Assembly: GCA_045649305.1 (NCBI GenBank)
Contig: JAZRPR010000003.1
Location: 830 to 64,829, forward strand
Origin: Candidatus Nanosyncoccus sp.
GTDB lineage: Bacteria; Patescibacteriota; Saccharimonadia; Saccharimonadales; Saccharimonadaceae
Reading direction: 5' to 3'
Length of the DNA stretch: 64,000 bases
Shown here: positions 1,718 to 50,866 of the stretch, piece after piece
Layout: each line of letters opens with the position of its first letter
Numbering within the stretch: the stretch's first letter is position 1
Translations under genes and position numbers: made by a program
Notes under the pieces: model-generated
The model's input: only the letters and a program-made list of their open reading frames with translations
What the model was told of the DNA's origin: nothing
Database searches by the model: none

Positions 1718-2755
1718 ATGGTCAAAGAAGGAACTGTTAAAACCAAAAAATCTCTTAAGGGCGTTGCTAAAGAAAAACTCAAAACCATGAAGCGCAGCAG
1801 CGCCAAGCATCCGATGCGTGAAAAATCTCGCATTGTCAAATATGGTGCAATTGGTTTTACGCGCAACATTTGGCTTTCGACTGCCGCTACCGCCGTCATG
1901 ACTTTTACGCTATTCATTTTGTTTGTTACCGTGGTTGCAAGCGTGATTTTGTCTAATACCGCCGACGCTATGCGCGAGAAGATCGATATTACTGTCTATC
2001 TCAAGCCAGGCACTGCTATCGAAGTGCTCGATGAGCTCAAGGAAACCATGGCCGCCGATTCCAACGTAAAATCGGTGGAAGTGGCTACTTCGGAGGAAGA
2101 GTACGAGAAGTTTATCGGCGAGCATCAAGACAATGATGAGCTACTCAACGTAGTTAAAGACGAAGACATGAAAAAAGTCATGATTTCGCAAATGCAATCA
2201 ACCATGCGCATCAAGGCCCACGACGTAGATGACCTTACTAGCATTAAAAACATCGTCGAAAACGATGAAGATTTCCAGAAAAATCTCGACACCAAAAAAG
2301 CCCCAACCTACAATGTCAACCAGATTGAAATCGCGACCATCACTACCTGGGCACGCATCGCCAGAACCGGTGGTATCGTGCTTGGTATCGTATTCTTGGT
2401 CATCTCGGTGCTTATCATCTTTAGTACGATTCGCCTTTCGATCTTTAGCCGCCGCGAAGAAATCTACATGATGAAACTGGTCGGCGCTAGCAAGGGCTTT
2501 ACCCGTGGGCCATTCATTGTTGAGGCCGAAATCTGTGGCATTATTGCCGCGGTGTTTGCCGCCACGATTAGCTACTTCTTCTTTACGCTGCTTTCACCAA
2601 AGCTCGCCAGCTACGGTATCAACGTTGAGTCATTTGCTAAGATTCTTGAATCCAATAAATTGATCCTAGTCTATCTGGTATTTATCGCGGTCGGCGTGAT
2701 GATCGGCAGCGTTTCGGCTCGTCTGGCCGTCAAGAAATATCTCAACAAAGCGTAA
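1718..2755 (+). CDS. ftsX: Cell division permease FtsX
   Basis: Four TM helices with a large extracellular loop; RREEIYMMKLVGA..GF.RGPF motif; abuts ftsE. Confidence 0.92.
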   Translation: MVKEGTVKTKKSLKGVAKEKLKTMKRSSAKHPMREKSRIVKYGAIGFTRNIWLSTAATAVMTFTLFILFVTVVASVILSNTADAMREKIDITVYLKPGTAIEVLDELKETMAADSNVKSVEVATSEEEYEKFIGEHQDNDELLNVVKDEDMKKVMISQMQSTMRIKAHDVDDLTSIKNIVENDEDFQKNLDTKKAPTYNVNQIEIATITTWARIARTGGIVLGIVFLVISVLIIFSTIRLSIFSRREEIYMMKLVGASKGFTRGPFIVEAEICGIIAAVFAATISYFFFTLLSPKLASYGINVESFAKILESNKLILVYLVFIAVGVMIGSVSARLAVKKYLNKA

Positions 2756-2792
2756 GCTTTACAAAAGAGATCAAATATGCTATATATTAATT

Positions 2793-3959
2793 ATGGTAAT
2801 GCTTAAAGGCTCCAAACGATTACTGATGATTGCAGGCCTGGTGGTAGCGGCCACTTTGGCTGGTACTTTGGTTTTCTACAGTAATAGCCAGGGTTTGTCG
2901 AGAGCCTGCCGCAATAGCGCTGCCTGTATGGAGGCTGTCGCCCGTGAGGAGGCTGCCAATGCTAATGCTGCAAACGCTATTAATTCTGCAAACTTATACC
3001 AGATTAAAGTTAATGAACTTAGCGCTTCGATCGCTAGGAAAGAAGCCGAAATCGCCGAGACCGAAGCTAATATTGCTGAGCTTAAACAAAAAATTGCCGA
3101 CGCCGAAGCCGAGCTCGAAAAAAAGCGCGATGCCTTGGCTGAGCTTTTGATCGATATGCATTTTGAGGGCGACGCCGAGCCAATCACGATTTTGGCTGGT
3201 AGTAGCTCAATATCTGATCTCGCTGAGAAGCAGGCCCGCGAAGAAGTGGTTAAGCAAGAAGTTGCCGCCGCTGCTGAAGTCATCAAGCAAACCAAACTCC
3301 AGCTCGAAGAAGACAAAGCTAGAGTTGAGGAATTGCTCGCCGGTCAACAGGCCGCGAGGGAAGAACTCATTGCTACTAAGGCCGAGCAACAAGCTATTGT
3401 TTCGAAATACCAAAACGACGCCAACGCTTACGCTGCGGCCGCCGAGCAGGCCAAGGAAGAACGCCGTGCTGCCGAGAAAGCCGAGCAGGAAGCTCACCCA
3501 GAACTCTACCGTGGTAGCGCCTACACTGGCGACAACACCTACCCATGGCAGGGCGACTGTCCAGGCCGTCAGGATGATTATTCTACCTACATTAATGGCC
3601 GCGCCATCGGTGGCTTAGTCTGCGAATGCGTTAGCTACACTGGTTGGAAAGCCTACGAATATTACGGCGTTTACGCTTCCTGGGGCAATGCTTACTCATG
3701 GGATGACGTCGCTAGAAACCTCGGCTATCGTGTCGACCATACTCCAGCCGAAGGCACAATTGGTCAAACCGACAGCGGCTATTGGGGCCACGTCTTCTGG
3801 GTTGAGAGTGTTAATATGGACGGTTCCATCAACGTTACTGAATACAACAACTACTACGCTACCTACCTTTATTCTGGTCATTCGCACTACGGCGACTTCG
3901 GCGCCCGCCAGATCCCAGCCAGCGAAGTTTGGCGCTACAACTACATCCACTTCGAATAA
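2793..3959 (+). CDS. PcsB/CwlO-like coiled-coil + CHAP peptidoglycan hydrolase
   Basis: Signal peptide, long coiled coil, CHAP catalytic motifs (CECVSY, WGHVFWVE, EYN); follows ftsEX. Confidence 0.88.
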   Translation: MVMLKGSKRLLMIAGLVVAATLAGTLVFYSNSQGLSRACRNSAACMEAVAREEAANANAANAINSANLYQIKVNELSASIARKEAEIAETEANIAELKQKIADAEAELEKKRDALAELLIDMHFEGDAEPITILAGSSSISDLAEKQAREEVVKQEVAAAAEVIKQTKLQLEEDKARVEELLAGQQAAREELIATKAEQQAIVSKYQNDANAYAAAAEQAKEERRAAEKAEQEAHPELYRGSAYTGDNTYPWQGDCPGRQDDYSTYINGRAIGGLVCECVSYTGWKAYEYYGVYASWGNAYSWDDVARNLGYRVDHTPAEGTIGQTDSGYWGHVFWVESVNMDGSINVTEYNNYYATYLYSGHSHYGDFGARQIPASEVWRYNYIHFE

Positions 3960-9765: not shown

Positions 9766-12432
9766 ATGAGACAAAAAACTAAGTATTTTCTGTTGGCACT
9801 AGCTTTTGCTGGTGTGTCAATAATTATTAGCAAAGCCACTCTGGCTGCGGGGAGCTTTGGGCTAGAAAGCGCCACTGTTTTAGATAAAGCTACGGATGTA
9901 GTGGCCGAAAACCCAATCGTTTCTGGCAACACTGCGACTTCGACAATTGTTTTTCACCTGCTAGATGACTTTGTCACATATAATCTTAGCCTCAAAAACT
10001 CAACCACCACCTCATTCAAGATTCTCGACATCACTGACAACAATACAAACGAGTTTGTAGAATACACTTACGACAATCATGCAGATGAAGTTGTTGATGC
10101 GGGCCAAGCACTTGACCTGGAAGTTACAATTACTTACATACAAGAACATTTAGACGATGATGATCGTACCCAAAACAACGATGTTACGTTTGTTATTTCG
10201 TATCAAGATCTTCATACCGGAGTAGTAGAAGAGGAAGAAGTCAAAATTATTCTAGTTCCTAATACTGGTGAGGCCGCCTCAGACTCAGTATCAGCAAACA
10301 TTGCATCAAATGTCTTGCTAATCGTCGCCATTATTACTGGCGCCGTTTTGGTGATTGTTATTTTGCGTAAGAAGAAGGGCGCTGCAACTATCCTAGCGTT
10401 AGTTATCACTGTTGTTGCCGCGAGCGTATTGGGCATTAGTGCGATCGCCGAAGAAAATGACGCATCGGATATGAACGTGAATATGAACAGCGAAATTAGG
10501 CTTCGCGACCAAATGTGTGGTGAAGTATATTGGAAAGACCCAGACACTGGCGCGGATGTTTATATGTCTCCAGATGATTTTGGTTGTGACGATTACGATC
10601 CGGACAATTTGGTCTACTTTGGAGATATTTTCAACCCTAGCTGGATTCCTGCACCTGATGGATTAATGGTTACTGGCTTTAGATTTACTGGCACGAATAC
10701 TGATGTGGACCTTGATGCTCTAATTTTGGATGACTACAGTGTGACACTTCTTTATGGTGAAAGAACCTATAGTATTACTTATGATTATAATGGTGGGACT
10801 GTGGCAACTGCCAATCCAACCACAGTTAAGAAAACTGACCAAGCATTTACGTTAAATAAGCCAACAAAAGATACAGCATACTTTAATTGTTGGCAAGGTT
10901 CTAATATTAGTTATGGCGAATGCTTAGAGGACGTAACTATCGATCCTTCTACCGTTAATGATGATTTGGAATACAAGGCCTTATTTCATCATGAAGTAAT
11001 CGTGAACGACCAGTACGGAAATGAACTCGTACATGACTTTATCCCAGAAGGTCACGATGGAATTACTTATTCAAAAACAATCTATCCAGAAGGCTATACC
11101 GTAAATAGTGGTTCTTGTACCAATGGGCAAAGGTTGAGAATCGTGACAAACCTTTACGAGGTGGACGGTTTGACAAACAATACTGTCTGTACAGTTAATA
11201 TTACACCTAAAACATATGATGTTGAACTAGTTGTAAATAATGGTTCTGGGTCCGCTACTAAGAGAATTAATCACGGTCAAGACGCGACATTCACAGGCAT
11301 AGCACCAAACACTGACTATACTTTAATTGAAAAAGTAAGTTGTACTAATGGGCAAACCGCAATCTATTCTAATGGGACTGTCACTGTAGAGAATGTGACT
11401 GGCAGTACTACTTGTACGATGAATGCTTTGCCTCCGACAATTCATACTATCACATACATGCAGGAAATGACTCCAGAGATTTGTGCTGCAACTACCACTC
11501 CAAGTAGCAGTCTCGAAACTGGCTCGCATATCGACTGGAATGGCTCACATTATGGCGACTCAAACTATACTCCGAGAACTGCACTCATCGATAATCGCGA
11601 TAACCAAAAATATCTCATAGAGAAACTCGCCGATGGTGAATGCTGGATGATGCAAAATTTGAGTCTTGCACTGTCTACAGAAAAAACATTTACAAGTGAA
11701 GATACCGATCTAAACACGATAAGTTCCTATACTCCTATTCGTAATACGGAAAACATAATAGTAAATGTCCAAAACCCTTACGGCGAAGACAAACAGGCAC
11801 TATATACGGCGCAACTTTCTTGGTACCCTGAATTCCCATATTTTGTGGGTACGGACGAATTCCCTTATAATGGCGTTACTCCATCAGATAGCCCTACGGA
11901 TGACTCGGATGAATATCTCTGGCAAAAGACGGGCAATCTCTATTCCGCTTCAGCGGTTACTGCGGGTACATACACGTTTGCTGCTGGCGCGGACTTCTAT
12001 ACTCAAGATACCATTTGTCCAAAAGGATGGACTTTGCCTGATAATGCCCTTATCGATCCTAATGGCACTAATCCTCCTAATGACAAATCGCTCTACAAGC
12101 TTATGTACACCTATTCACCTAATAATCAATCCACGGATTATTTGCATTTCGCCGAATCCGGTATCTTCTCGCAAACATTTGGTGGTTATTATCAAAGTCG
12201 CCAAGGTGCCGGTATGTCTGGCTTTTCAACTATGAACGGTGTCAAATATTATACTGAAGTAGCTTATTTGGGCGAATATTTTCGAGATGCCTATGGTACT
12301 GGTAGGAGTAATCCATTTATGCTCGCGTATGCAAGATTCTTGTTCCCAAATTATCCGTATGTGCAAATTCAGACTAGTAACTCAAACGTTCTAACATTTC
12401 ATGGTGCGTACGCACGTTGTATAGCTAGATAA
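9766..12432 (+). CDS. Surface protein: signal peptide, N-module, internal VPNTG-TM-RKKK, second signal-like segment, InlB B-type repeat, C-terminal FISUMP-like domain
   Basis: YSITYDYNGG...NKPTK repeat; IDNRDNQKY..KLADGECWMMQNL, GNLYS, ICPKGWTLP and terminal ARC match the Fibrobacter succinogenes major paralogous domain pattern. Confidence 0.75.
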   Translation: MRQKTKYFLLALAFAGVSIIISKATLAAGSFGLESATVLDKATDVVAENPIVSGNTATSTIVFHLLDDFVTYNLSLKNSTTTSFKILDITDNNTNEFVEYTYDNHADEVVDAGQALDLEVTITYIQEHLDDDDRTQNNDVTFVISYQDLHTGVVEEEEVKIILVPNTGEAASDSVSANIASNVLLIVAIITGAVLVIVILRKKKGAATILALVITVVAASVLGISAIAEENDASDMNVNMNSEIRLRDQMCGEVYWKDPDTGADVYMSPDDFGCDDYDPDNLVYFGDIFNPSWIPAPDGLMVTGFRFTGTNTDVDLDALILDDYSVTLLYGERTYSITYDYNGGTVATANPTTVKKTDQAFTLNKPTKDTAYFNCWQGSNISYGECLEDVTIDPSTVNDDLEYKALFHHEVIVNDQYGNELVHDFIPEGHDGITYSKTIYPEGYTVNSGSCTNGQRLRIVTNLYEVDGLTNNTVCTVNITPKTYDVELVVNNGSGSATKRINHGQDATFTGIAPNTDYTLIEKVSCTNGQTAIYSNGTVTVENVTGSTTCTMNALPPTIHTITYMQEMTPEICAATTTPSSSLETGSHIDWNGSHYGDSNYTPRTALIDNRDNQKYLIEKLADGECWMMQNLSLALSTEKTFTSEDTDLNTISSYTPIRNTENIIVNVQNPYGEDKQALYTAQLSWYPEFPYFVGTDEFPYNGVTPSDSPTDDSDEYLWQKTGNLYSASAVTAGTYTFAAGADFYTQDTICPKGWTLPDNALIDPNGTNPPNDKSLYKLMYTYSPNNQSTDYLHFAESGIFSQTFGGYYQSRQGAGMSGFSTMNGVKYYTEVAYLGEYFRDAYGTGRSNPFMLAYARFLFPNYPYVQIQTSNSNVLTFHGAYARCIAR

Positions 12433-12505
12433 ATAAATCTCACAAAAATCACAAAAATCAAGTGTTTATTTTAGCCACAACCGTGATAAAATAAACATAA
12501 GTAAA

Positions 12506-15500
12506 GTGGAGCAAAAATTGAAAAAGCGGGGTAGCATGATGTTGGGTACTGGTGCGCACGTAAGGAGGCGTAATTATTTCCCACTTATTATTACTGCGAT
12601 TTTCGTATTTGGTTTTGTTGCTTCACTTATTTCCACTCTTACTACTTCTGCAGCGGCAAATATTTTTAAGATTCAAAATGTCGAGCAGACGGGTATTTCT
12701 GCCTCTGCCGAGGGAACTATTACTGGTTTTGATGAGCAAACAATTTCGAGCGGCGTAGTATTCCACCACCTTAACGACTATGTTGAATATACTATTACTT
12801 TAAAGAATACTGATACGAGCGCGCATATCATTGAGGCTATTACGGATAATAATAACAACCCATATATAATATATGATTATTTAAACCACCAAAACGAACA
12901 AATAGGTGCCGGAAGTGATCTTGTCTTTGTAGTTACTGCTAGATATGTAAACCAAGCTGATATGAACGACCGTGTCAGTGTAAACAACGTCAAGTTTAAT
13001 ATTAAGTTTTTAGACATCGAAGAAGATGATGAAGTAATTGTCGTGCCAGACACTGGTGCGAGCACGAGCACTTCTGGTGGAGCTTCATTTAGCGCTATTT
13101 CACTCATTATTTCTGCGCTTGGCCTTATTCTAATTTGTGTTCTTGTCATGAAGAAACAAAAGAAAGTAAGCAGAGTGATTGTTGCTCTCATGATTTGTAT
13201 TTCTGCTATCACCTTCGCCACTACCGTAAAGGCTGAGGGAGCTTCTGTTAATGGGTTTACTTTCACTACGGGATTTGCCTTTAGGGATCGCTTGATTGTA
13301 ACTTATAAAGACGGAAACAATAACGAGCACCAAGAAATAATTAACTATGGTAGTTTATTAAACCTTGAAAACCCTGTAAAAAATGGATATCGCTTTGCCG
13401 GTTGGAAATATGCCGACGGATCTACATTTATTGCTTCTGACCCAATTACGGATGATATTTCGATTGAACCTGTGTTTACGATTGATACTTATATTATTTC
13501 TTATGACCTTGCTGGTGGTACTACTTCTGAACCAAACACTACTAACTACACCGTGAATGATATTGTGATTTTGCACGAACCAACCAAAGAACATTACGTG
13601 TTTGCTGGTTGGACTGGCACGGGTTTAGATGAACCAACAAAGAATGTTGTAATACCTGCGGGTAGTACTGGAGTCAGAAGCTACACGGCAACATATTCAC
13701 CAATTGATTATGATATTACGTATTCTAATATTACCTTAGAGGAGCTTGCACTTTTGAACGCCCCATTAACTTATAATATCGAGACAGCTCCATTTACTAT
13801 TGGTAAACCCGCAACTCGGCTTGACGATGACGAGGATCCAATTTATACATTTGTTGGCTGGAAAGAGGGAAGCACGATTTCTGAGACTATTACTCTTCCT
13901 GATGCAAATTCGATGGGGCCAAAAATCTATGAAGCACAGTGGGCTCCAGTTGATGCTACAACGTATACTATTTCTTATGAGTTAAATGGTGGCACGACTG
14001 CTACACCTAACAGAACTACTTTTACTAAGAATGATGAGACCTTCTCGATTATTAATCCTACAAAGACCGGCTATACATTTAAGGGCTGGTCTGGGACCGA
14101 TCTAACTGGTGATACCAACACAGATGTACAAGTCGTTTCTGGTACTAGAAAAAATCTTTCGTTTGAAGCTCACTACACTGCCAATACATACAAAGTCGTT
14201 TTTAATGCTAATGGTGGTACTGGCAATATGGCGGATCAAACTCTTACCTATGATACGGCCGCAAATCTAAATGCTAATACTTATACCAAAACTGGTTATA
14301 GTTTTGGTGGTTGGAACACTGCAGCTGGTGGTACGGGAACTGCTTATACCAATGGGGCCGAAGTAGAAAATTTAAAGACCGAGGGCGAAATAACACTCTA
14401 CGCTCAGTGGACGGCAAACAGCTACTTGGTCGCCTTTGATTGCAATCATGTTGGTTGCGAAGGTACTATGGAAAACCTCCCAATGGTTTATGACGTAGAA
14501 AAAGCCTTACCACTCAATGTGTTTAGTGTTCCTGGTTATGCCTTTACTGGCTGGGGCACTGAGGCGGCAGGTGACGGCGATAGCTATGGCAATGGCGCCG
14601 AGGTAAACAACCTCGCCGCTACTGGTGCAATTACGCTCTATGCTCAGTGGACCACCGTAGATTACGACATATCCTACGAACTAAATGGCGGCACTGCCGA
14701 AAACCCAGCTACCTACACTACAGAGCAGACCATTACGCTAAACAACCCAACCAAAACCGGCTACAACTTCACCGGTTGGAGCGGTACAGATCTTGATGGC
14801 GAGGACGATATGGAAGTCACTATCCCAGCTGGCAGTACTGGTAACCGCAACTACACCGCCAACTGGTCTGACCCAATTAACTACAGTATTGAATACACCG
14901 GTCTAGATGCTCTCACCGAAGAAGAACTTGCCGCATTCACCAACCCTACCACCTACACCATAGAAAGTAGCTTTACGCTTTCGAATCCAGCTCACCTTGG
15001 TTACCAATTCGTCGGCTGGACCGGTAGCAATGGCGACACGCTACAGACGACTGTAAATGTTGCGGCTGGCACCACAGGAAGTCTTAGCTATCACGCTAAC
15101 TTCGCCGCCAACACCTACACCGTGGTCTTTGAGAAAAACCCAGGCACACATAATATTGGTGGCGACATGGACGCACAAGCCTTTATCTATGACACCGAAC
15201 AAGCTCTTACTGACAATGCCTTTACTATCGACGAACCAGGCTTCAAATATGGTGGTTGGAACACCGAAGCTGATGGCTCTGGCACGCACTACGACGATAA
15301 ACAGACGGTAGAGAATCTCACCGCTGAAAACGAAGGCACCGTAACGCTCTATGCTGAATGGGGCAGGACACCATATACGATCGCTTTCGACAAAAACAAC
15401 GAAAACGCAACTGGCGAAATGCTTCCTATCGAGAATATTACCTACGGTGAACATATTACCTTGCCACAAGTAGGTTTCGTTTATAACGACCACAAAATCG

Positions 15501-18379
15501 CAAGCTGGAATACTGAGCCAGATGGTTCTGGTCGTAGCTATGGAGATCAAGCTGACGTCGTAAACGTCGCTATCGATGGCACAGTTACGCTTTATGCGCA
15601 GTGGCGCGATACAGAAGCCGTATTCTTGGGTGGCACCAGACCAAAAATGAAATGGATTGCACTAGCTGGTGGCAACCAAGCGAACATTACGGCGATTAGG
15701 CAATATGCTGGTACGCCGGACGTAACGACCTTTACGGATGACAACATCGTTTCAGAAGAAACTTCTCCAGACCCAATTTATACATGGTATGATAACGGAA
15801 CAATCTACTACTGGAGCGAGGATAATCATCCTGCACTTAGTGCATTCTCAAGAGAGATGTTTGATGGACTTACGAAGGCAGAAGTAATTGAGGTCAAAAA
15901 CCTAGACACGTCAAATGTGACCAATATGATTTACATGTTTAGGAACTGTTCAAGCTTAAAGAGCCTAGATCTGAGTAATTTCGACACAAGTAAAGTAACG
16001 ACTATGCATCAGATGTTTAATGGTTGCAGTAGCTTAGCCGAGTTAGATGTATCTACGTTTGATACTAAAAACGTAACAGATATGCACGGGATGTTCGCTA
16101 ATTGTAGCGGATTGACAGAGTTAGATGTAAGTAATTTCGATACAAGTAATGTGACTACCATGACGGGTATGTTCCAGAACGACAGTGGCTTAACTGAGAT
16201 AGATATTACTGGATTTAATACGGAGAATGCAAAAAGCATTAGCGGCATGTTCATGGGCTGTACTCGTTTGACCGAAATCGATTTAAGTCACATGAACACC
16301 CAAAAAATTACGGATATGTCAAATCTATTCAGAGGATGTACAAATCTTGAAAATGTGATATTTGGCGAGGACTTTAAAGCAGAAGAAGTAACTACGATGC
16401 GAAATATGTTTATGGGTTGTACGAGTCTAAAAGTACTAGATTTGAGTACTTTCGAAGCAACAAAGGTAACAAATGTTTACCAAATGTTCCTATATGACAA
16501 CCAGCTCGAAACGATATATGTCACAAATCCAGAAGCATTCTCAAACATAACCGATTCTCAGGATATGTTCCATAGTTGTGGCTCGCTAGTGGGCGGAATG
16601 GGCACGGTGCAAAGTCAAATTTATAGATCCGGTGAGCGTGCGTTTATAGACTTGGGTCCTGATAGGCCAGGTTACTTCACGGACAAAACCAAACTCAATG
16701 TATTTTACTATCCAAATGATAACGAAGCCACCGGCACAATGGAAGACCAGCTCGGGGTTGTAGTCGGTGAAGGCGTGCGACTGAATGCAAACCAGTATAA
16801 AAAGACCGGATTTAAATTTGGTGGCTGGAATACAGAACCAGATGGCTCTGGCGACCACTATGATGACGAACAAATAGTCACAAAGAATGGTTTCCTGAAA
16901 CTCTATGCTCAATGGGGTGAGAGCCCATACACGGTGATCTTTGATAAAAACGCTGACGATGCACAGGGTAACATGGAGAGCATCAGTAAAATTTATGGCG
17001 AACACTTTGATCTTCCGGCCAGTACATTCACAAGACAAAGTTATATATTCCAAGGATGGAACACTGAAGCAGACGGCTCTGGTAAACACTATGACGACCA
17101 AGAAAACGTCATCAACCTAGATACAGATGGCGAAGTTACGCTCTACGCTGAATGGCTTGAATCAACCGCAATCATTGCAGACCATGGTCCAAACACGGGT
17201 TTTAGCCTAAACATTAAATCGCTCGTTGGTAACAACGGTAGCACTCCGTCTCATGCCAACTATACCGTTAAGAAGATTGTCCGTTCAGACACTGAACCAA
17301 CTGATGAGCAAAAAGCACATCCAAGAAGCAACGTTGCGGCTACGAATTCAAATTTTCCAGTATATATATGGTTCGATGAGCCAACTGGCACCATTTATTG
17401 GTGGAGCGAAGCTGAAACAGTCTTTATGGCGAAGCGTGCTGATTATATGTTTGCAAACTTTAAGGCTCTCGAAAGCGTTGATGTCGAGGATTTTGACACT
17501 TCGCTAACAACCAGCATGGCCGGTTTGTTCAACGGTGATGAGGCGCTTGCGTCAATCGATCTTTCGAATTTCGATACTGATGGCGTAACGGACATGCATC
17601 AAATGTTTAGCGGATGTTCTGCGCTTAACTCGCTAGACGTATCTGGGTTTGACACTGATGACGTAACTAATATGTCATCTATGTTCTCAGGTCTAGCTAA
17701 TGTCTCTAGTCTCAATGTGACGAGCTTTAATACCGAAAATGTCGAGAATTTCAGCGGTATGTTTAGAGGCATGAAAAATCTCACTAGTCTTGACGTTTCT
17801 GGGTTTAATACTGGTAAAGCCACTCTCATGAACGAAATGTTTAGGGATTGTGAAAAGCTTGAAATCATCAATGTAAGCAGATTTAATACAGCAAAGGTTA
17901 CTTCATTTGAGGGTATGTTTAGGGGTTGTAAAGCCGTAGAAGAACTTGACGTCTCTGGATTTGTCACGAGTAGCGCCCAGAACATTTCCGCCATGTTCTA
18001 TGGTTGTAGTAGCATTACGGAGCTCGACCTTCATAACTTTAACACGAGCAATGTTATTTCAATGAATCATACCTTCCTTGGACTAACCAATGTAGAAGTA
18101 CTTGACCTTAGCACTTTTGACACCAAAAATGTTACAGGAATGCAGTATACTTTCTCAAGCGACGTAAACCTAAAAACAATTTATGTAACAGATAAATTCG
18201 TAACCAGCGCGATTCCTGAAAACTCGGCTAGCTCCCAACTCATGTTCTATCAATGTGGCAAACTCGTTGGTGGGCTTGGAACGAAATTCAGTGGCCAATT
18301 CATCAACCACGTCCGTGCTCATATCGATGGCGGTCCAGACAATCCGGGTTACTTCACCGATATTGCAGATAAACCGTAG
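12506..18379 (+). CDS. 1957-aa surface protein: N-module, internal VPDTG-TM-KKQKK, second signal-like segment, many InlB B-type repeats, two BspA/DUF285-type LRR arrays
   Basis: Repeats Y.V.F..NGG.G.M..Q...Y......L..N.Y.K.GY.F.GWNT...G.G..Y; ~25-aa repeats LD(L/V)S.F(D/N)T.(N/K)VT.M..MF. Start GTG 12506 or a nearby ATG. Confidence 0.8.
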   Translation: MEQKLKKRGSMMLGTGAHVRRRNYFPLIITAIFVFGFVASLISTLTTSAAANIFKIQNVEQTGISASAEGTITGFDEQTISSGVVFHHLNDYVEYTITLKNTDTSAHIIEAITDNNNNPYIIYDYLNHQNEQIGAGSDLVFVVTARYVNQADMNDRVSVNNVKFNIKFLDIEEDDEVIVVPDTGASTSTSGGASFSAISLIISALGLILICVLVMKKQKKVSRVIVALMICISAITFATTVKAEGASVNGFTFTTGFAFRDRLIVTYKDGNNNEHQEIINYGSLLNLENPVKNGYRFAGWKYADGSTFIASDPITDDISIEPVFTIDTYIISYDLAGGTTSEPNTTNYTVNDIVILHEPTKEHYVFAGWTGTGLDEPTKNVVIPAGSTGVRSYTATYSPIDYDITYSNITLEELALLNAPLTYNIETAPFTIGKPATRLDDDEDPIYTFVGWKEGSTISETITLPDANSMGPKIYEAQWAPVDATTYTISYELNGGTTATPNRTTFTKNDETFSIINPTKTGYTFKGWSGTDLTGDTNTDVQVVSGTRKNLSFEAHYTANTYKVVFNANGGTGNMADQTLTYDTAANLNANTYTKTGYSFGGWNTAAGGTGTAYTNGAEVENLKTEGEITLYAQWTANSYLVAFDCNHVGCEGTMENLPMVYDVEKALPLNVFSVPGYAFTGWGTEAAGDGDSYGNGAEVNNLAATGAITLYAQWTTVDYDISYELNGGTAENPATYTTEQTITLNNPTKTGYNFTGWSGTDLDGEDDMEVTIPAGSTGNRNYTANWSDPINYSIEYTGLDALTEEELAAFTNPTTYTIESSFTLSNPAHLGYQFVGWTGSNGDTLQTTVNVAAGTTGSLSYHANFAANTYTVVFEKNPGTHNIGGDMDAQAFIYDTEQALTDNAFTIDEPGFKYGGWNTEADGSGTHYDDKQTVENLTAENEGTVTLYAEWGRTPYTIAFDKNNENATGEMLPIENITYGEHITLPQVGFVYNDHKIASWNTEPDGSGRSYGDQADVVNVAIDGTVTLYAQWRDTEAVFLGGTRPKMKWIALAGGNQANITAIRQYAGTPDVTTFTDDNIVSEETSPDPIYTWYDNGTIYYWSEDNHPALSAFSREMFDGLTKAEVIEVKNLDTSNVTNMIYMFRNCSSLKSLDLSNFDTSKVTTMHQMFNGCSSLAELDVSTFDTKNVTDMHGMFANCSGLTELDVSNFDTSNVTTMTGMFQNDSGLTEIDITGFNTENAKSISGMFMGCTRLTEIDLSHMNTQKITDMSNLFRGCTNLENVIFGEDFKAEEVTTMRNMFMGCTSLKVLDLSTFEATKVTNVYQMFLYDNQLETIYVTNPEAFSNITDSQDMFHSCGSLVGGMGTVQSQIYRSGERAFIDLGPDRPGYFTDKTKLNVFYYPNDNEATGTMEDQLGVVVGEGVRLNANQYKKTGFKFGGWNTEPDGSGDHYDDEQIVTKNGFLKLYAQWGESPYTVIFDKNADDAQGNMESISKIYGEHFDLPASTFTRQSYIFQGWNTEADGSGKHYDDQENVINLDTDGEVTLYAEWLESTAIIADHGPNTGFSLNIKSLVGNNGSTPSHANYTVKKIVRSDTEPTDEQKAHPRSNVAATNSNFPVYIWFDEPTGTIYWWSEAETVFMAKRADYMFANFKALESVDVEDFDTSLTTSMAGLFNGDEALASIDLSNFDTDGVTDMHQMFSGCSALNSLDVSGFDTDDVTNMSSMFSGLANVSSLNVTSFNTENVENFSGMFRGMKNLTSLDVSGFNTGKATLMNEMFRDCEKLEIINVSRFNTAKVTSFEGMFRGCKAVEELDVSGFVTSSAQNISAMFYGCSSITELDLHNFNTSNVISMNHTFLGLTNVEVLDLSTFDTKNVTGMQYTFSSDVNLKTIYVTDKFVTSAIPENSASSQLMFYQCGKLVGGLGTKFSGQFINHVRAHIDGGPDNPGYFTDIADKP

Positions 18380-33625: not shown

Positions 33626-35059
33626 ATGCATTTCAAGACTATTTTCAAATCTCTCAAGAATAAAGACATGCTTCGCCGTGTTTTCATTATTCTTGGTATC
33701 CTGGTGGCCTATCGTCTGCTTGCCCACATTCCAGTGCCGATGGGAAACGCTTCAACCTTTAAAGAAGCCGTCTCAAACCTGCTCGAGAAATCCGATTTCT
33801 CCAGCTTCCTTAACCTGATTTCTGGTGGTGGATTAGCCTCATTTAGTATTATTTTGGTTGGTCTTTCTCCATACATCACCGGCTCAATTATCATTCAGCT
33901 CTTAACCAAGGCCATCCCATCTCTTGAGGAGCTTTCTCAAGATGGTGAAGTCGGTCGCCGCAAGATTAATCAGTGGACCCGCATGCTTACCATTCCTCTA
34001 GCAATTGTCCAATCTGTTGCCTATATCTTTATCCTTTATCAATCAACCGTCTCGGCTAACGTCGCAGCGGAGTTCCAGCCAACCATGGGTGACTGGATCC
34101 TCTCTGTTACGGCTATGACCGCTGGCTCTGTTATCTTGATGTGGCTCGGCGAGCTCATTACCGAGCAGGGCATTGGCAACGGTATTTCAATGATTATTTT
34201 CGCTTCTATCATTTCCCAACTCCCAACCACTCTTGCCAACCTCGGCTCCGAGCTATTTAACACTACCAATGGTTCACTCGACCTCTTTGGCTGGGTTCAG
34301 CTTCCGGTCAACCCAACCGTCTTCTGGATCATCCTAGGCTTCGGTATTGCTATGTTAATAGTGATATTCTTCCTGGTCAAGCTCAACGAGGCGCAGCGGG
34401 TAATTACGATTAATTACGCCAAGCGCGTCCACGGTAATACCAGCTACGGTGGCATCAAATCTATCTTGCCAATCAAGCTGATTGCCGCCGGCGTTATCCC
34501 AGTGATTTTCGCAACCGCATTCTTGTCGCTTCCAGCCCTAGTTGGCCAAGTGATTACTTCGATGAATCCAGGCAACGAGCTCGGTAGCACACTTACGTCG
34601 CTCTTCACCGCACCGTCCGCTAACAACTTCCAGGCAATGTATCCAAACGGCATCACTGCCCAATGGTTCCTCTATCCAGCACTTTACTTTATCCTAGTGA
34701 TTCTCTTTACCTACTTCTACACCTCGATCATTTTCAACACCAACGAAATTGCCGACAACCTCCAGAAGCAAGGTGGCTTTATCGAAGGTGTTCGCCCAGG
34801 CGTTACTACGGCCAAATACCTTGGTAAAGTTGTCAACCGCCTCAACCTCTTTGGTGCTTTGGCGCTCGGCCTTATCGCAATGCTTCCATTCATTACCGAT
34901 TACATCTTCATCGTCCTAGTTGGCTATCCAATCGGTCTCTCTATCTCTGGTACTGGTCTTCTCATCGTGGTCACCGTCGCTCTCGAAAACCTCCGCTCTC
35001 TCGACTCTCGCGCGCTAATGGTAACATATGACGATTTCAGCAATGAATCTCAAGACTAG
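33626..35059 (+). CDS. secY: Protein translocase subunit SecY
   Basis: GLSPYITGSIIIQLL, LGELITEQGIGNGISMIIF, GGFIEGVRPG..T..YL, GTGLLIVV. Confidence 0.97.
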   Translation: MHFKTIFKSLKNKDMLRRVFIILGILVAYRLLAHIPVPMGNASTFKEAVSNLLEKSDFSSFLNLISGGGLASFSIILVGLSPYITGSIIIQLLTKAIPSLEELSQDGEVGRRKINQWTRMLTIPLAIVQSVAYIFILYQSTVSANVAAEFQPTMGDWILSVTAMTAGSVILMWLGELITEQGIGNGISMIIFASIISQLPTTLANLGSELFNTTNGSLDLFGWVQLPVNPTVFWIILGFGIAMLIVIFFLVKLNEAQRVITINYAKRVHGNTSYGGIKSILPIKLIAAGVIPVIFATAFLSLPALVGQVITSMNPGNELGSTLTSLFTAPSANNFQAMYPNGITAQWFLYPALYFILVILFTYFYTSIIFNTNEIADNLQKQGGFIEGVRPGVTTAKYLGKVVNRLNLFGALALGLIAMLPFITDYIFIVLVGYPIGLSISGTGLLIVVTVALENLRSLDSRALMVTYDDFSNESQD

Positions 35060-35717
35060 ACACTGGGGCAAAATCATCTCTTGTATCCTGGGTGGGATTG
35101 CAGTAATTTTGATTCTAATCTTCTTTATCCGTGTTGCCACCTGGGAACACAACTATTACAACGAAAAAGAGGGTTCCGACCGTGCTGAGCCAGTCGTGAC
35201 CGAATCGGATGCCGTCGATGAAACCCCAATCACCGAGGAGCAAATCCTCGAGTACACGGTCCCGGCAGACTATCCACGCTATCTTACGATTAGTAAACTC
35301 GGCAAGAGGGCCCGCGTTATTGTAGTGGGCACGCTCAAAAACGGCGAAGTTGGCACCCCTACCAATGTTCACGACGTGGGATGGTATAACGGCTCCAGCC
35401 GTCCAGGCTTTGGTGGCAAAATCCTGATTGATGGCCACAATGGTGGCCCAAGCGTAGCTGGCGTCTTCAAGAGGCTTCCGGAGCTCGTCCCAGGCGATAT
35501 CGTCACTATCGAGCGCGGCGACGGCGCTACTTTTGACTACCGCGTCACCGAAAGCTACGCCAGGGAAATCGTCCAGGCCAACAACGAAATGCGCAAAGTC
35601 TTCCAGACCACCGAAACCGAAACTCTCGTCCTAATCACCTGTACCGGGGAATGGGACAATGCAAACGAGACCTACAACTCTCGTCAATTCGTCTACGCCG
35701 AACTAGTCCAAGAATAG
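35043..35717 (+). CDS. Class F sortase
   Basis: N-terminal TM; DVGWY, LIDGH (His), TLVLITCTG (Cys), distal R (NSRQFVYA). ATG 35043 overlaps the secY stop. Confidence 0.85.
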   Translation: MNLKTRHWGKIISCILGGIAVILILIFFIRVATWEHNYYNEKEGSDRAEPVVTESDAVDETPITEEQILEYTVPADYPRYLTISKLGKRARVIVVGTLKNGEVGTPTNVHDVGWYNGSSRPGFGGKILIDGHNGGPSVAGVFKRLPELVPGDIVTIERGDGATFDYRVTESYAREIVQANNEMRKVFQTTETETLVLITCTGEWDNANETYNSRQFVYAELVQE

Positions 35718-49118: not shown

Positions 49119-50234
49119 ATGGATATATTGTTAGTAATTTTGGGAGCCGTGATTATTGTTTTGCTCCTAGTTTTGATTCTTAGAAAACCTAAACTTAGTC
49201 TCGGCAAAGAGTTCGACCAGATGAACGAACGCATTATTCGTGTCGAGGGTGAGATTAATAAATTAAACCCAGCTATCGATCGCAACTTCCGCGAAAACCG
49301 TAAGGAAATCGCCGAAAATCTCGAACGCTTACAGAGTGGCAACGAGAAAAAGCTCGAAGAAATGCGTGAAACCGTAGATGAAAAGCTCAAAGCTTCGGTT
49401 GAAAAGCGTTTTAATGAGAGTTTTAAATCGATTTCGACCCAGCTTACCCAGGTTTACCAAGGTCTCGGCGAGATGAAGAATATGGCCAATGAAGTTGGCG
49501 ACCTTAAGAAGGTTATGGAAGGCGTCAAAACTCGCGGTATTTATGGCGAGGTGCAACTCGGCGCCATCATCGAGGACATGCTCAATAAATCACAATACGA
49601 AGAAAATATTATTACCAAGCCAGGCTCAAACGATCGCGTTGAGTTTGCGATTAAGATGCCAGGCAAAGAAGATAATGTCTTTTTGCCGATCGACTCCAAG
49701 TTCCCAGTGGAGAACTATTCCAGGCTGATTGCCGCCTATGACGCTGGCAACAAGGCGGACATTGCTACTTATCAAAAGGCTTTGGCAGGCGACGTTAAGG
49801 AACAAGCCAAAAAGATCTCAACCAAATATCTTGAGCCGCCAATGACCACGGACTTTGGTATCATGTTTGTCCCAACCGAATCACTTTATGCCGAGATTAT
49901 CCGTATTCCTGGTCTCTCGGATGAAATTCGCAAAAAATTTAGCGTAGCAATCGCTTCGCCGTCTACCTTGCCAGTGATGCTAAATGGCCTAGTGATGGGC
50001 TTCCGCACGCTCGCTATTGAAAAACGTTCAGCCGATGTTTGGAATACGCTTGGTGCCGTCAAGACGCAGTTTGGCAAGTTTGGTGATCTGCTTGAGGGAG
50101 TACAAAAGAAACTTCAGGAATCCGCTAACAAGATTGAGTCAGCACGCACTACTTCGCGCCAAATTGAGAGAAAATTGAAAGACGTTGAAGAGCTGCCAGA
50201 GGCAGAATCAGTTAAATTAATTGGTGAAGTTTAG
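49119..50234 (+). CDS. rmuC: DNA recombination protein RmuC
   Basis: N-terminal TM and coiled coil; KTRG.YGE.QL, LPIDSKFP.E.Y, DFGIMFVPTESLY. Confidence 0.93.
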   Translation: MDILLVILGAVIIVLLLVLILRKPKLSLGKEFDQMNERIIRVEGEINKLNPAIDRNFRENRKEIAENLERLQSGNEKKLEEMRETVDEKLKASVEKRFNESFKSISTQLTQVYQGLGEMKNMANEVGDLKKVMEGVKTRGIYGEVQLGAIIEDMLNKSQYEENIITKPGSNDRVEFAIKMPGKEDNVFLPIDSKFPVENYSRLIAAYDAGNKADIATYQKALAGDVKEQAKKISTKYLEPPMTTDFGIMFVPTESLYAEIIRIPGLSDEIRKKFSVAIASPSTLPVMLNGLVMGFRTLAIEKRSADVWNTLGAVKTQFGKFGDLLEGVQKKLQESANKIESARTTSRQIERKLKDVEELPEAESVKLIGEV

Positions 50235-50866
50235 AACCCGCGAATCTTATCGAACGGGAATAATCTAAATAGAACTGGGCCCATAATGCGGCAGTATGGA
50301 ATCGTGCCGAGGCCGCTGCGAGAATCTTTAGACCAGCTGCCTTCGCGGTTGTCGCCAGAGACGAACAATTCGCCTTCCGGAACGATCATATCGATGTTGC
50401 CCGAGGTGTGGGCTTTTGGCCCTACGTTGTCGTCTTCACGCCATTCTTCGTCGTAGACGTAGCCTTCTGGATGCTCTTCGTTGTAAATCGTCATCACGCC
50501 ATCTTTCACCACGACGCGCTCGCCAGGGAAGGCTACGACACGTTTAATGATATATTGGTCGTCTACGTTGTCTGGGGCGTTGCAAGTGAGCTTGCCAGAG
50601 GCGTTGCCGTTGGCAAAGACAATAATTTGGCCACGTTCTGGCACGTATTCTTCACCCTTAAAATGTGCCCAAGAAACCGCCAAACGGTTAACGATTACAC
50701 GGTCGCCGTTTACCATAGTATTTTCCATGCTTGGACCAACCACGTTGTAAGAACGATAAATGTAAGTATTCAAGAAAATGGTACCGAGCACCACGATTGC
50801 TACAAAACTAACCAAGCTAAGAATGTCTTTTAAAAGCGGATGCTTCTGAAAAAAAGTCGGTTCCAT
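50231..50866 (-). CDS. lepB: Signal peptidase I
   Basis: VVGPSM..T (Ser), IIKRVVA.PGE (Lys), GDNR..S.DSR. Confidence 0.93.
   Translation of the reverse strand: MEPTFFQKHPLLKDILSLVSFVAIVVLGTIFLNTYIYRSYNVVGPSMENTMVNGDRVIVNRLAVSWAHFKGEEYVPERGQIIVFANGNASGKLTCNAPDNVDDQYIIKRVVAFPGERVVVKDGVMTIYNEEHPEGYVYDEEWREDDNVGPKAHTSGNIDMIVPEGELFVSGDNREGSWSKDSRSGLGTIPYCRIMGPVLFRLFPFDKIRGF

Follow-up and report, generated by a model that had tools for sequence, protein, structure and literature searches.

An internal sortase signal followed by a second signal-peptide-like helix in a large family of adhesin-like proteins from Saccharibacteria and Bacillota

Sortase chemistry attaches only the C-terminus of a protein to the cell wall and, for this reason, the N-terminal anchor of the pneumococcal IgA1 protease has been seen as an oddity of a single family. 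Two large neighbouring genes in a 64,000-nucleotide stretch of DNA from Candidatus Nanosyncoccus sp. (contig JAZRPR010000003.1, positions 830 to 64,829; hereafter the window, to which all coordinates refer unless another contig is named) raise the question of how general such anchoring might be, as each encodes a sortase-type sorting signal close to its N-terminus, with a second signal-peptide-like helix and most of the protein following in frame. How would such proteins be displayed, and are they peculiar to this genome? We report that their N-terminal cassette defines a family that is new, large and without annotation and that follows a rare but known anchoring design. With rather better than even confidence, we propose from the sequences that these proteins undergo double processing, by signal peptidase I and by a sortase, and that the cargo is then either tethered by its front end or released.

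The source genome comprises 0.72 Mb in 42 contigs. Open reading frame (ORF) A occupies positions 9766-12432 of the + strand and encodes 888 aa, and ORF B, also on the + strand, occupies 12506-18379 and encodes 1957 aa counted from the GTG at 12506. A third paralogue, of 1730 aa, lies on contig C4 of the same genome and reads YPDTG, transmembrane (TM) helix, RNHRK, TM helix and AKA/AT, where '/' is the predicted cutting site. In all three, a signal peptide and an immunoglobulin (Ig)-like module precede the motif; a TM helix and a basic loop come next, and a second signal-peptide-like helix that ends in [AV]xA leads into a repeat-containing cargo. The N-terminal regions of ORF A and ORF B are homologous (33% identity, E 8e-30), the Ig-like module is present once per protein and the cargo extends for 660 residues in ORF A and 1714 residues in ORF B.

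In ORF A, the n-h-c grammar of the translation points to a first signal peptide at residues 1-28 (9766-9849), with a predicted cut at TLAA/GS. The Ig-like anchor module (9850-10254, residues 29-163), which is homologous to the ORF B module that is predicted to fold as a beta-sandwich, leads to the internal sortase motif VPNTG (10255-10269, residues 164-168). The first TM helix and its basic stop, RKKK, follow at 10300-10377 (residues ~179-200 and 201-204; the 17-mer mean in a hydrophobicity scan is 3.38), and the second signal-peptide-like helix (10378-10449, residues 205-228) ends in AIA/EE, with a cut predicted after 10449. The cargo (10450-12432) consists of a B-repeat-like first domain, a Flg_new repeat and a C-terminal FISUMP-like domain, with no C-terminal anchor.

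The corresponding features of ORF B are its N-terminus and first signal peptide (12506-12652, with a predicted cut at TSA/AAN after residue 49), the Ig-like anchor module, as modelled with AlphaFold2 (12653-13042, residues 50-179), the internal motif VPDTG (13043-13057, residues 180-184), the first TM helix with the basic loop KKQKKVSR (13088-13174, residues ~195-215 and 216-223; a helix is predicted at model residues 182-205) and the second signal-peptide-like helix (13175-13234, residues 224-243), which ends in VKA/EG with a cut predicted after 13234. The cargo (13235-18379) holds a first B-repeat-like domain, approximately ten Flg_new repeats and two DUF285/PARCEL leucine-rich repeat (LRR) blocks and, again, no C-terminal anchor. 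The start of ORF B is uncertain: the GTG at 12506 is without an obvious Shine-Dalgarno sequence, a GGAG at 12508-12511 precedes a TTG at 12518, and there is an ATG ATG at 12536, so that translation may begin at 12518 or 12536. A sequence-only reading of this DNA had described the same layout for both large proteins, and every one of its coordinates agrees with the translations; the topology it proposed, with the module outside, a sorting signal, a cytoplasmic basic loop and a cargo re-exported by way of the second helix, is compatible with the sequence grammar.

A profile of the three cassettes was searched against 1.84 billion representative proteins and matched 818 clusters at E<=1e-3; the number falls to 479 at E<=1e-10 and to 134 at E<=1e-30. 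Nearly all of the matches span the whole profile and are located at residues ~1-250, the proteins themselves being 600-2900 aa long. The succession of PxT, TM helix, basic loop and second helix recurs in 137 of the 138 full-length family representatives (those of at least 300 aa), and the layout is therefore far beyond chance. Searches of Pfam, NCBIfam and PDB sequences with the module returned no family match.

Residue conservation was read from an unbiased MAFFT alignment of 140 diverse N-termini. The Thr of the motif is 100% conserved and its Pro 99%, while the second site has Ala at -1 in 100% of the sequences; no other column of the N-terminal region is conserved as strongly, those of the folded module included. 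That both proposed scissile positions are the most conserved of all is the strongest argument for two real processing sites. At the second site, 87% of members also have V, A or I at -3 and 50% have Pro at -6; the first signal peptide has Ala at -1 in 92%, and the second site lies a median of 53 aa beyond the motif Thr, with a range of 44-75. The fifth residue of the motif is G in 62%, S in 14% and N in 9% of the sequences, and position 6 is D in 70%. The sequence-only reading had named poor conservation of xPxTG among homologues as a finding that would speak against it; the Pro and Thr are retained almost without exception, and it is the Gly that has partly given way. In members at L013:743-1900 and L014, from Nanosyncoccaceae and related metagenome-assembled genomes (MAGs), TPETLD stands in place of xPxTG, with P and T kept and Leu at position 5; either the cognate sortases of these lineages tolerate the change or sortase processing has been lost there.

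A scan of all 2725 ORFs of the source genome for xPx[TSA]x with a hydrophobic stretch and a basic cluster found sortase-type signals of the form [VTYLA]PxT[GS] in 12 ORFs only, three of them internal (ORF A, ORF B and the C4 paralogue) and nine C-terminal. The C-terminal signals read VPDTG in five of the nine, identical to the internal motif of ORF B, the others being TPDTG, TPKTG, VPNTS, APETG and one of LPKTG type. Since the internal motifs match the C-terminal signals of the genome, the internal motif is the organism's own sortase motif. C-terminal sorting signals were recovered in six family-carrying genomes, and the agreement between internal and C-terminal motifs also holds in five genomes besides the source genome: Bacillota genomes have C-terminal NPKTGD, NPQTGD, NPGTGD and NPNTGD with internal family motifs NPKTGD or NPTTGD, and Saccharibacteria genomes have C-terminal VPDTG, TPNTD and TPNTGD with internal VPNTG/VPDTG/YPDTG, SPNTGD and VPNTGD.

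The enzymes for both proposed steps are encoded. Sortases are present in all seven family-carrying genomes checked, including the source genome, which has two. One of these is in the window (35028-35717, + strand; PF04203, 5.5e-20) and is class-F-like, its NF033748 score of 94.8 bits being below the subfamily cut-off; the gene overlaps the 3' end of secY (33626-35059) by 32 nucleotides, inside a conserved ribosomal-protein/secY block. The second, on contig C31, is a class C/E-like protein of 374 aa with a long N-terminal extension, and the two motif types of the genome, [VT]PxTG and LPKTG, might be assigned one to each sortase. The only signal peptidase I gene found in the genome is also in the window (50231-50866, - strand; TIGR02227, 106 bits, above the cut-off). 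Among 13 family loci, no conserved upstream gene neighbour, such as a dedicated sortase, was found.

The cargo of ORF B is matched strongly by PF09479 (Flg_new; 251.9 bits, 3e-76), PF03382 (DUF285; 288.9 bits, 2.8e-87) and TIGR02167 (397 bits, 3.2e-122), and that of ORF A more faintly, by Flg_new at residues 335-377 (24.3 bits, just under the cut-off of 27) and by the FISUMP-like TIGR02145 at 715-761 (32.3 bits, below cut-off). No Pfam match to a peptidase or G5 domain was obtained in the cargo. The cargo matches, those of ORF B being above cut-off, resemble the surface proteins with Flg_new/InlB B-repeats or PARCEL/DUF285 repeats that are known from Listeria, Bacteroides and Mycoplasma. For anchoring, the latter use a lipoprotein signal, GW modules or a C-terminal LPXTG, whereas the present family has the N-terminal sorting cassette. 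Of the 129 members of at least 500 aa, a single one ends in a hydrophobic C-terminus, and TM-like 19-mers past residue 330 are likewise confined to one member; the cassette is the sole anchoring element of these proteins. The first domain after the hairpin, although akin to the later B-repeats, is far better conserved than they are (a median of 81 bits against 13 bits for the later repeats with the same hidden Markov model). The conserved unit therefore consists of the first signal peptide, the module, the sorting signal, the second signal peptide and the first domain, and the remainder is interchangeable.

In its tripartite grammar, and in a pentapeptide that the C-terminal substrates of the host also use, the cassette resembles a canonical C-terminal sorting signal (TIGR01167/PF00746). 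It departs from this in lying at residues ~165-220 of proteins of 600-2900 aa, with a second signal peptide and most of the protein following in frame, in remaining under the TIGR01167 cut-off and in having no match in general Pfam and NCBIfam scans. The sequence-only reading took the architecture to be unlike that of any characterised protein, and here it was mistaken, for the streptococcal M26 zinc metalloproteases (IgA1 protease and ZmpB, ZmpC and ZmpD) match it in layout. In these proteins from Streptococcus and Gemella (IgA1 protease/ZmpA, ZmpB, ZmpC and ZmpD), as in the present family, a signal peptide is followed by a sortase pentapeptide early in the chain, two hydrophobic segments lie beyond the motif, the second of them ending in a signal-peptidase-like site, and a very large cargo has an exposed C-terminus and no C-terminal anchor. 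Published work on these proteases proposes processing by a sortase together with a second cut by signal peptidase. The papers describe a secretion model for the IgA1 protease type in which the second segment serves as a second signal peptide (PMC3518915), place the cleavage of the IgA1 protease 56 residues downstream of the motif (PMC9637739), to be compared with our median of 53 aa, and present ZmpB as tethered with its carboxyl end exposed (PMC7939560).

We detected no sequence relationship between the two groups; the cargo of the present family is B-repeat/PARCEL-LRR/FISUMP and adhesin-like while in Zmp a G5 domain accompanies an M26 protease (HEXXH); the sortase signal reads [VN]PxT[G/S/N] rather than LPXTG; and the hosts are Saccharibacteria and Bacillota MAGs of the rumen and gut. 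Zmp proteins are not known to have more than a short segment ahead of the motif, where the present proteins have a folded Ig-like module of ~125 aa. In the absence of shared sequence, protease or G5 domain, we regard the cassette family as an analogue and not a member of the Zmp family.

Taken together, these features would be accommodated by the following sequence of events. The Ig-like module would be exported by Sec until the sorting signal halts transfer, leaving the basic loop in the cytoplasm, and the second helix would then restart export, this time of the cargo. Signal peptidase I would cleave after the invariant Ala and a sortase after the invariant Thr, joining the module to the cell wall, and the membrane would keep a hairpin peptide of ~55-60 aa. 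As the cargo is without another anchor, it would be held at its front end, or else released: its conserved first domain may bind the wall-linked module non-covalently, with the variable C-terminal repeats directed outward. It is plausible that one gene yields two stoichiometric surface proteins in this way.

Several points weigh against this scheme or limit it. In ~12% of members the fifth motif residue is Y, H, D, F, K, L or W, which many sortases would disfavour. The TM1 region of ORF A scores 10.8 bits with TIGR01167, below the cut-off of 15.9; the canonical signals of the same genome are poor scorers too, reaching 16.7 bits at most. An analysis of coevolution between the module and the first cargo domain, by mutual information (MI) with average product correction, is dominated by clade signal, gives no contact ladder and says little either way about their association. 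Finally, the scheme is indirect: both cleavages and the linkage to the wall we infer from the grammar, the conservation, the host-matched motifs, the enzymes present and the lack of other anchors, and the association of module and cargo is of the same inferential kind.

The structural predictions bear on how module and cargo may be related. An AlphaFold2 model of ORF B residues 11-360 consists of the module as a confident beta-sandwich (predicted local distance difference test, pLDDT, >90), the hairpin as two helices of lower confidence and then a confident beta domain; modelled alone, the module has a pLDDT of 87 and a predicted template modelling score (pTM) of 0.82. Foldseek searches with the module, taken from the 350-aa model or from the module-only model, returned generic Ig-like sandwiches only (template modelling score about 0.5 or lower), and the part of ORF B beyond the hairpin matches the InlB B-repeat. 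The pTM of the 350-aa model is 0.62, against the ~0.4 that we estimate for two independently placed domains, which is suggestive of an interface between the module and the first domain. Within the module of ORF B, near-invariant residues lie between 86 and 156 (window positions about 12761-12973), namely FH 86-87, D91, N101, D114 and N116 (the 'ITDDN' motif), Y123, Y125, Y147 and R156, and these polar and aromatic positions suggest a candidate site for a metal, a glycan or the first domain of the cargo. Isopeptide, ester-bond and pilin-lysine linkages were each considered and set aside, as the residues they would use are not invariant and the HxDxxDxxQ-type signature is absent from ORF B and the C4 paralogue. 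The strongest MI signals couple motif position 1 (N or V) with the Pro at -6 of the second signal peptide (ORF B residues 180, 215 and 238). This is probably a clade effect that separates Bacillota from Saccharibacteria, and co-adaptation to the host sortase and signal peptidase would fit it also.

Of the other accounts of the cassette, the one that survives best, though we think it unlikely, is that sortase cuts and the second helix is an uncleaved signal-anchor, so that the module would be linked to the wall and the adhesin would stay in the membrane, held there by the TM hairpin or the second TM helix. The prediction of the hairpin as two helices agrees with this, as does an h-region of 15-19 residues in the second helix, which is at the long end for signal peptides. 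A plain anchor, however, needs none of the c-region grammar that the second site has in common with the first signal peptide (the -1 Ala in every sequence, a small or aliphatic residue at -3 and, often, a Pro at -6), and the Zmp precedent is modelled with cleavage.

Doubtful, in our view, is a device of 'membrane splicing', in which the hairpin would be excised by the two enzymes while the wall-linked module stays joined to the cargo, whether by docking of the conserved first domain in a way that resembles strand complementation or covalently, through transfer onto the cargo by sortase. Were this to hold, it would be a general way for bacteria, ultra-small epibionts included, to hang giant adhesins on the wall N-terminally, and the excised hairpin of ~55 aa could act as a signalling peptide.

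We consider it improbable that, once the hairpin has been excised, sortase transfers the Thr of the module to the new N-terminal amine of the cargo or to a lysine, to produce a covalent product or polymers. The chemistry is possible in principle; sortases take N-terminal Gly or Ala, or Lys, as nucleophiles, and Ala is the commonest +1 residue at the second site (48%). Yet several residues occur there (A 48%, E 13%, V 10%), Glu being the one in both ORF A and ORF B, and neither the module nor the first cargo domain has an invariant lysine (K100 is conserved in 78%; K262 in 69%, with R in 14% there), for which reasons covalent rejoining or polymerisation is the less likely. The family differs from sortase-polymerised pilins, too, in that none of the 140 sequences' lysines forms an invariant nucleophile; there is no pilin motif, and the joined product would be without any anchor. 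The suggestion of the sequence-only reading that the two products may be sortase-linked is weakened accordingly, neither the new N-terminal residue nor any lysine being invariant.

We give an equally slim chance to the view that the motif is a relic untouched by sortase and the cassette a two-TM anchor that shows both module and cargo outside. The relaxation of position 5, which is other than G, S, N or A in ~12% of members, would favour a relic, and an internal location is atypical among sortase substrates. Against it stand the retention of P (99%) and T (100%) amid a variable and poorly predicted linker, the way in which the motif follows the host-specific C-terminal sorting motifs across two phyla, and the presence of sortases in the source genome and in all six other carriers checked.

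That the layout is an artefact, with two neighbouring genes joined through an error of sequencing or assembly or through an overlooked stop codon, is so improbable as to be negligible, for the few short database entries (142-244 aa) that might suggest it are contig-end fragments or frameshifts and the fused layout recurs in three paralogues and hundreds of independent assemblies. Homologues split into two ordinary genes, which the sequence-only reading said would count against it, were not found. Of the top 150 matches, ten are short entries, all of them contig-end fragments or frameshifts, and when stand-alone modules of 116-368 aa were sought in 5.8 billion clusters, a single protein came up, P0171, whose ORF continues in another frame. 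On the metagenome contig L062, at 2076-3390, the family member is broken by a frameshift inside the first TM helix, and P0171 is for this reason a truncated gene call.

Named genomes that carry the family comprise seven Saccharibacteria MAGs and five Erysipelotrichaceae/Tenericutes/Bacilli MAGs, besides one labelled simply 'bacterium'; where a source is stated, it is the ruminant gut in most cases. Occurrence is very patchy: sampling across the phylum found the family in one of 301 genomes and sampling across the order in two of 301, the second of these being a weak partial match (E 7.6e-6), and two genomes from the genus of the source organism lack it. At window positions 10001-14000 the G+C content is 0.39-0.41, compared with about 0.47 in other parts. 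This patchiness and low G+C, along with the Bacillota members, suggest that the family has spread horizontally, and they are consistent with a recent acquisition by the source genome, perhaps from co-resident Bacillota.

Annotation pipelines now miss the cassette, as neither Pfam nor NCBIfam holds a model of it. With two invariant residues and a small folded module, it offers a clean test system for N-terminal anchoring. The surface proteins of Saccharibacteria probably mediate attachment to their host bacteria, and the anchoring logic of the pneumococcal IgA1 protease would, if the double processing proposed here is correct, have evolved in, or spread to, adhesin-like proteins of two phyla, which form a far larger set and are unrelated to that protease.

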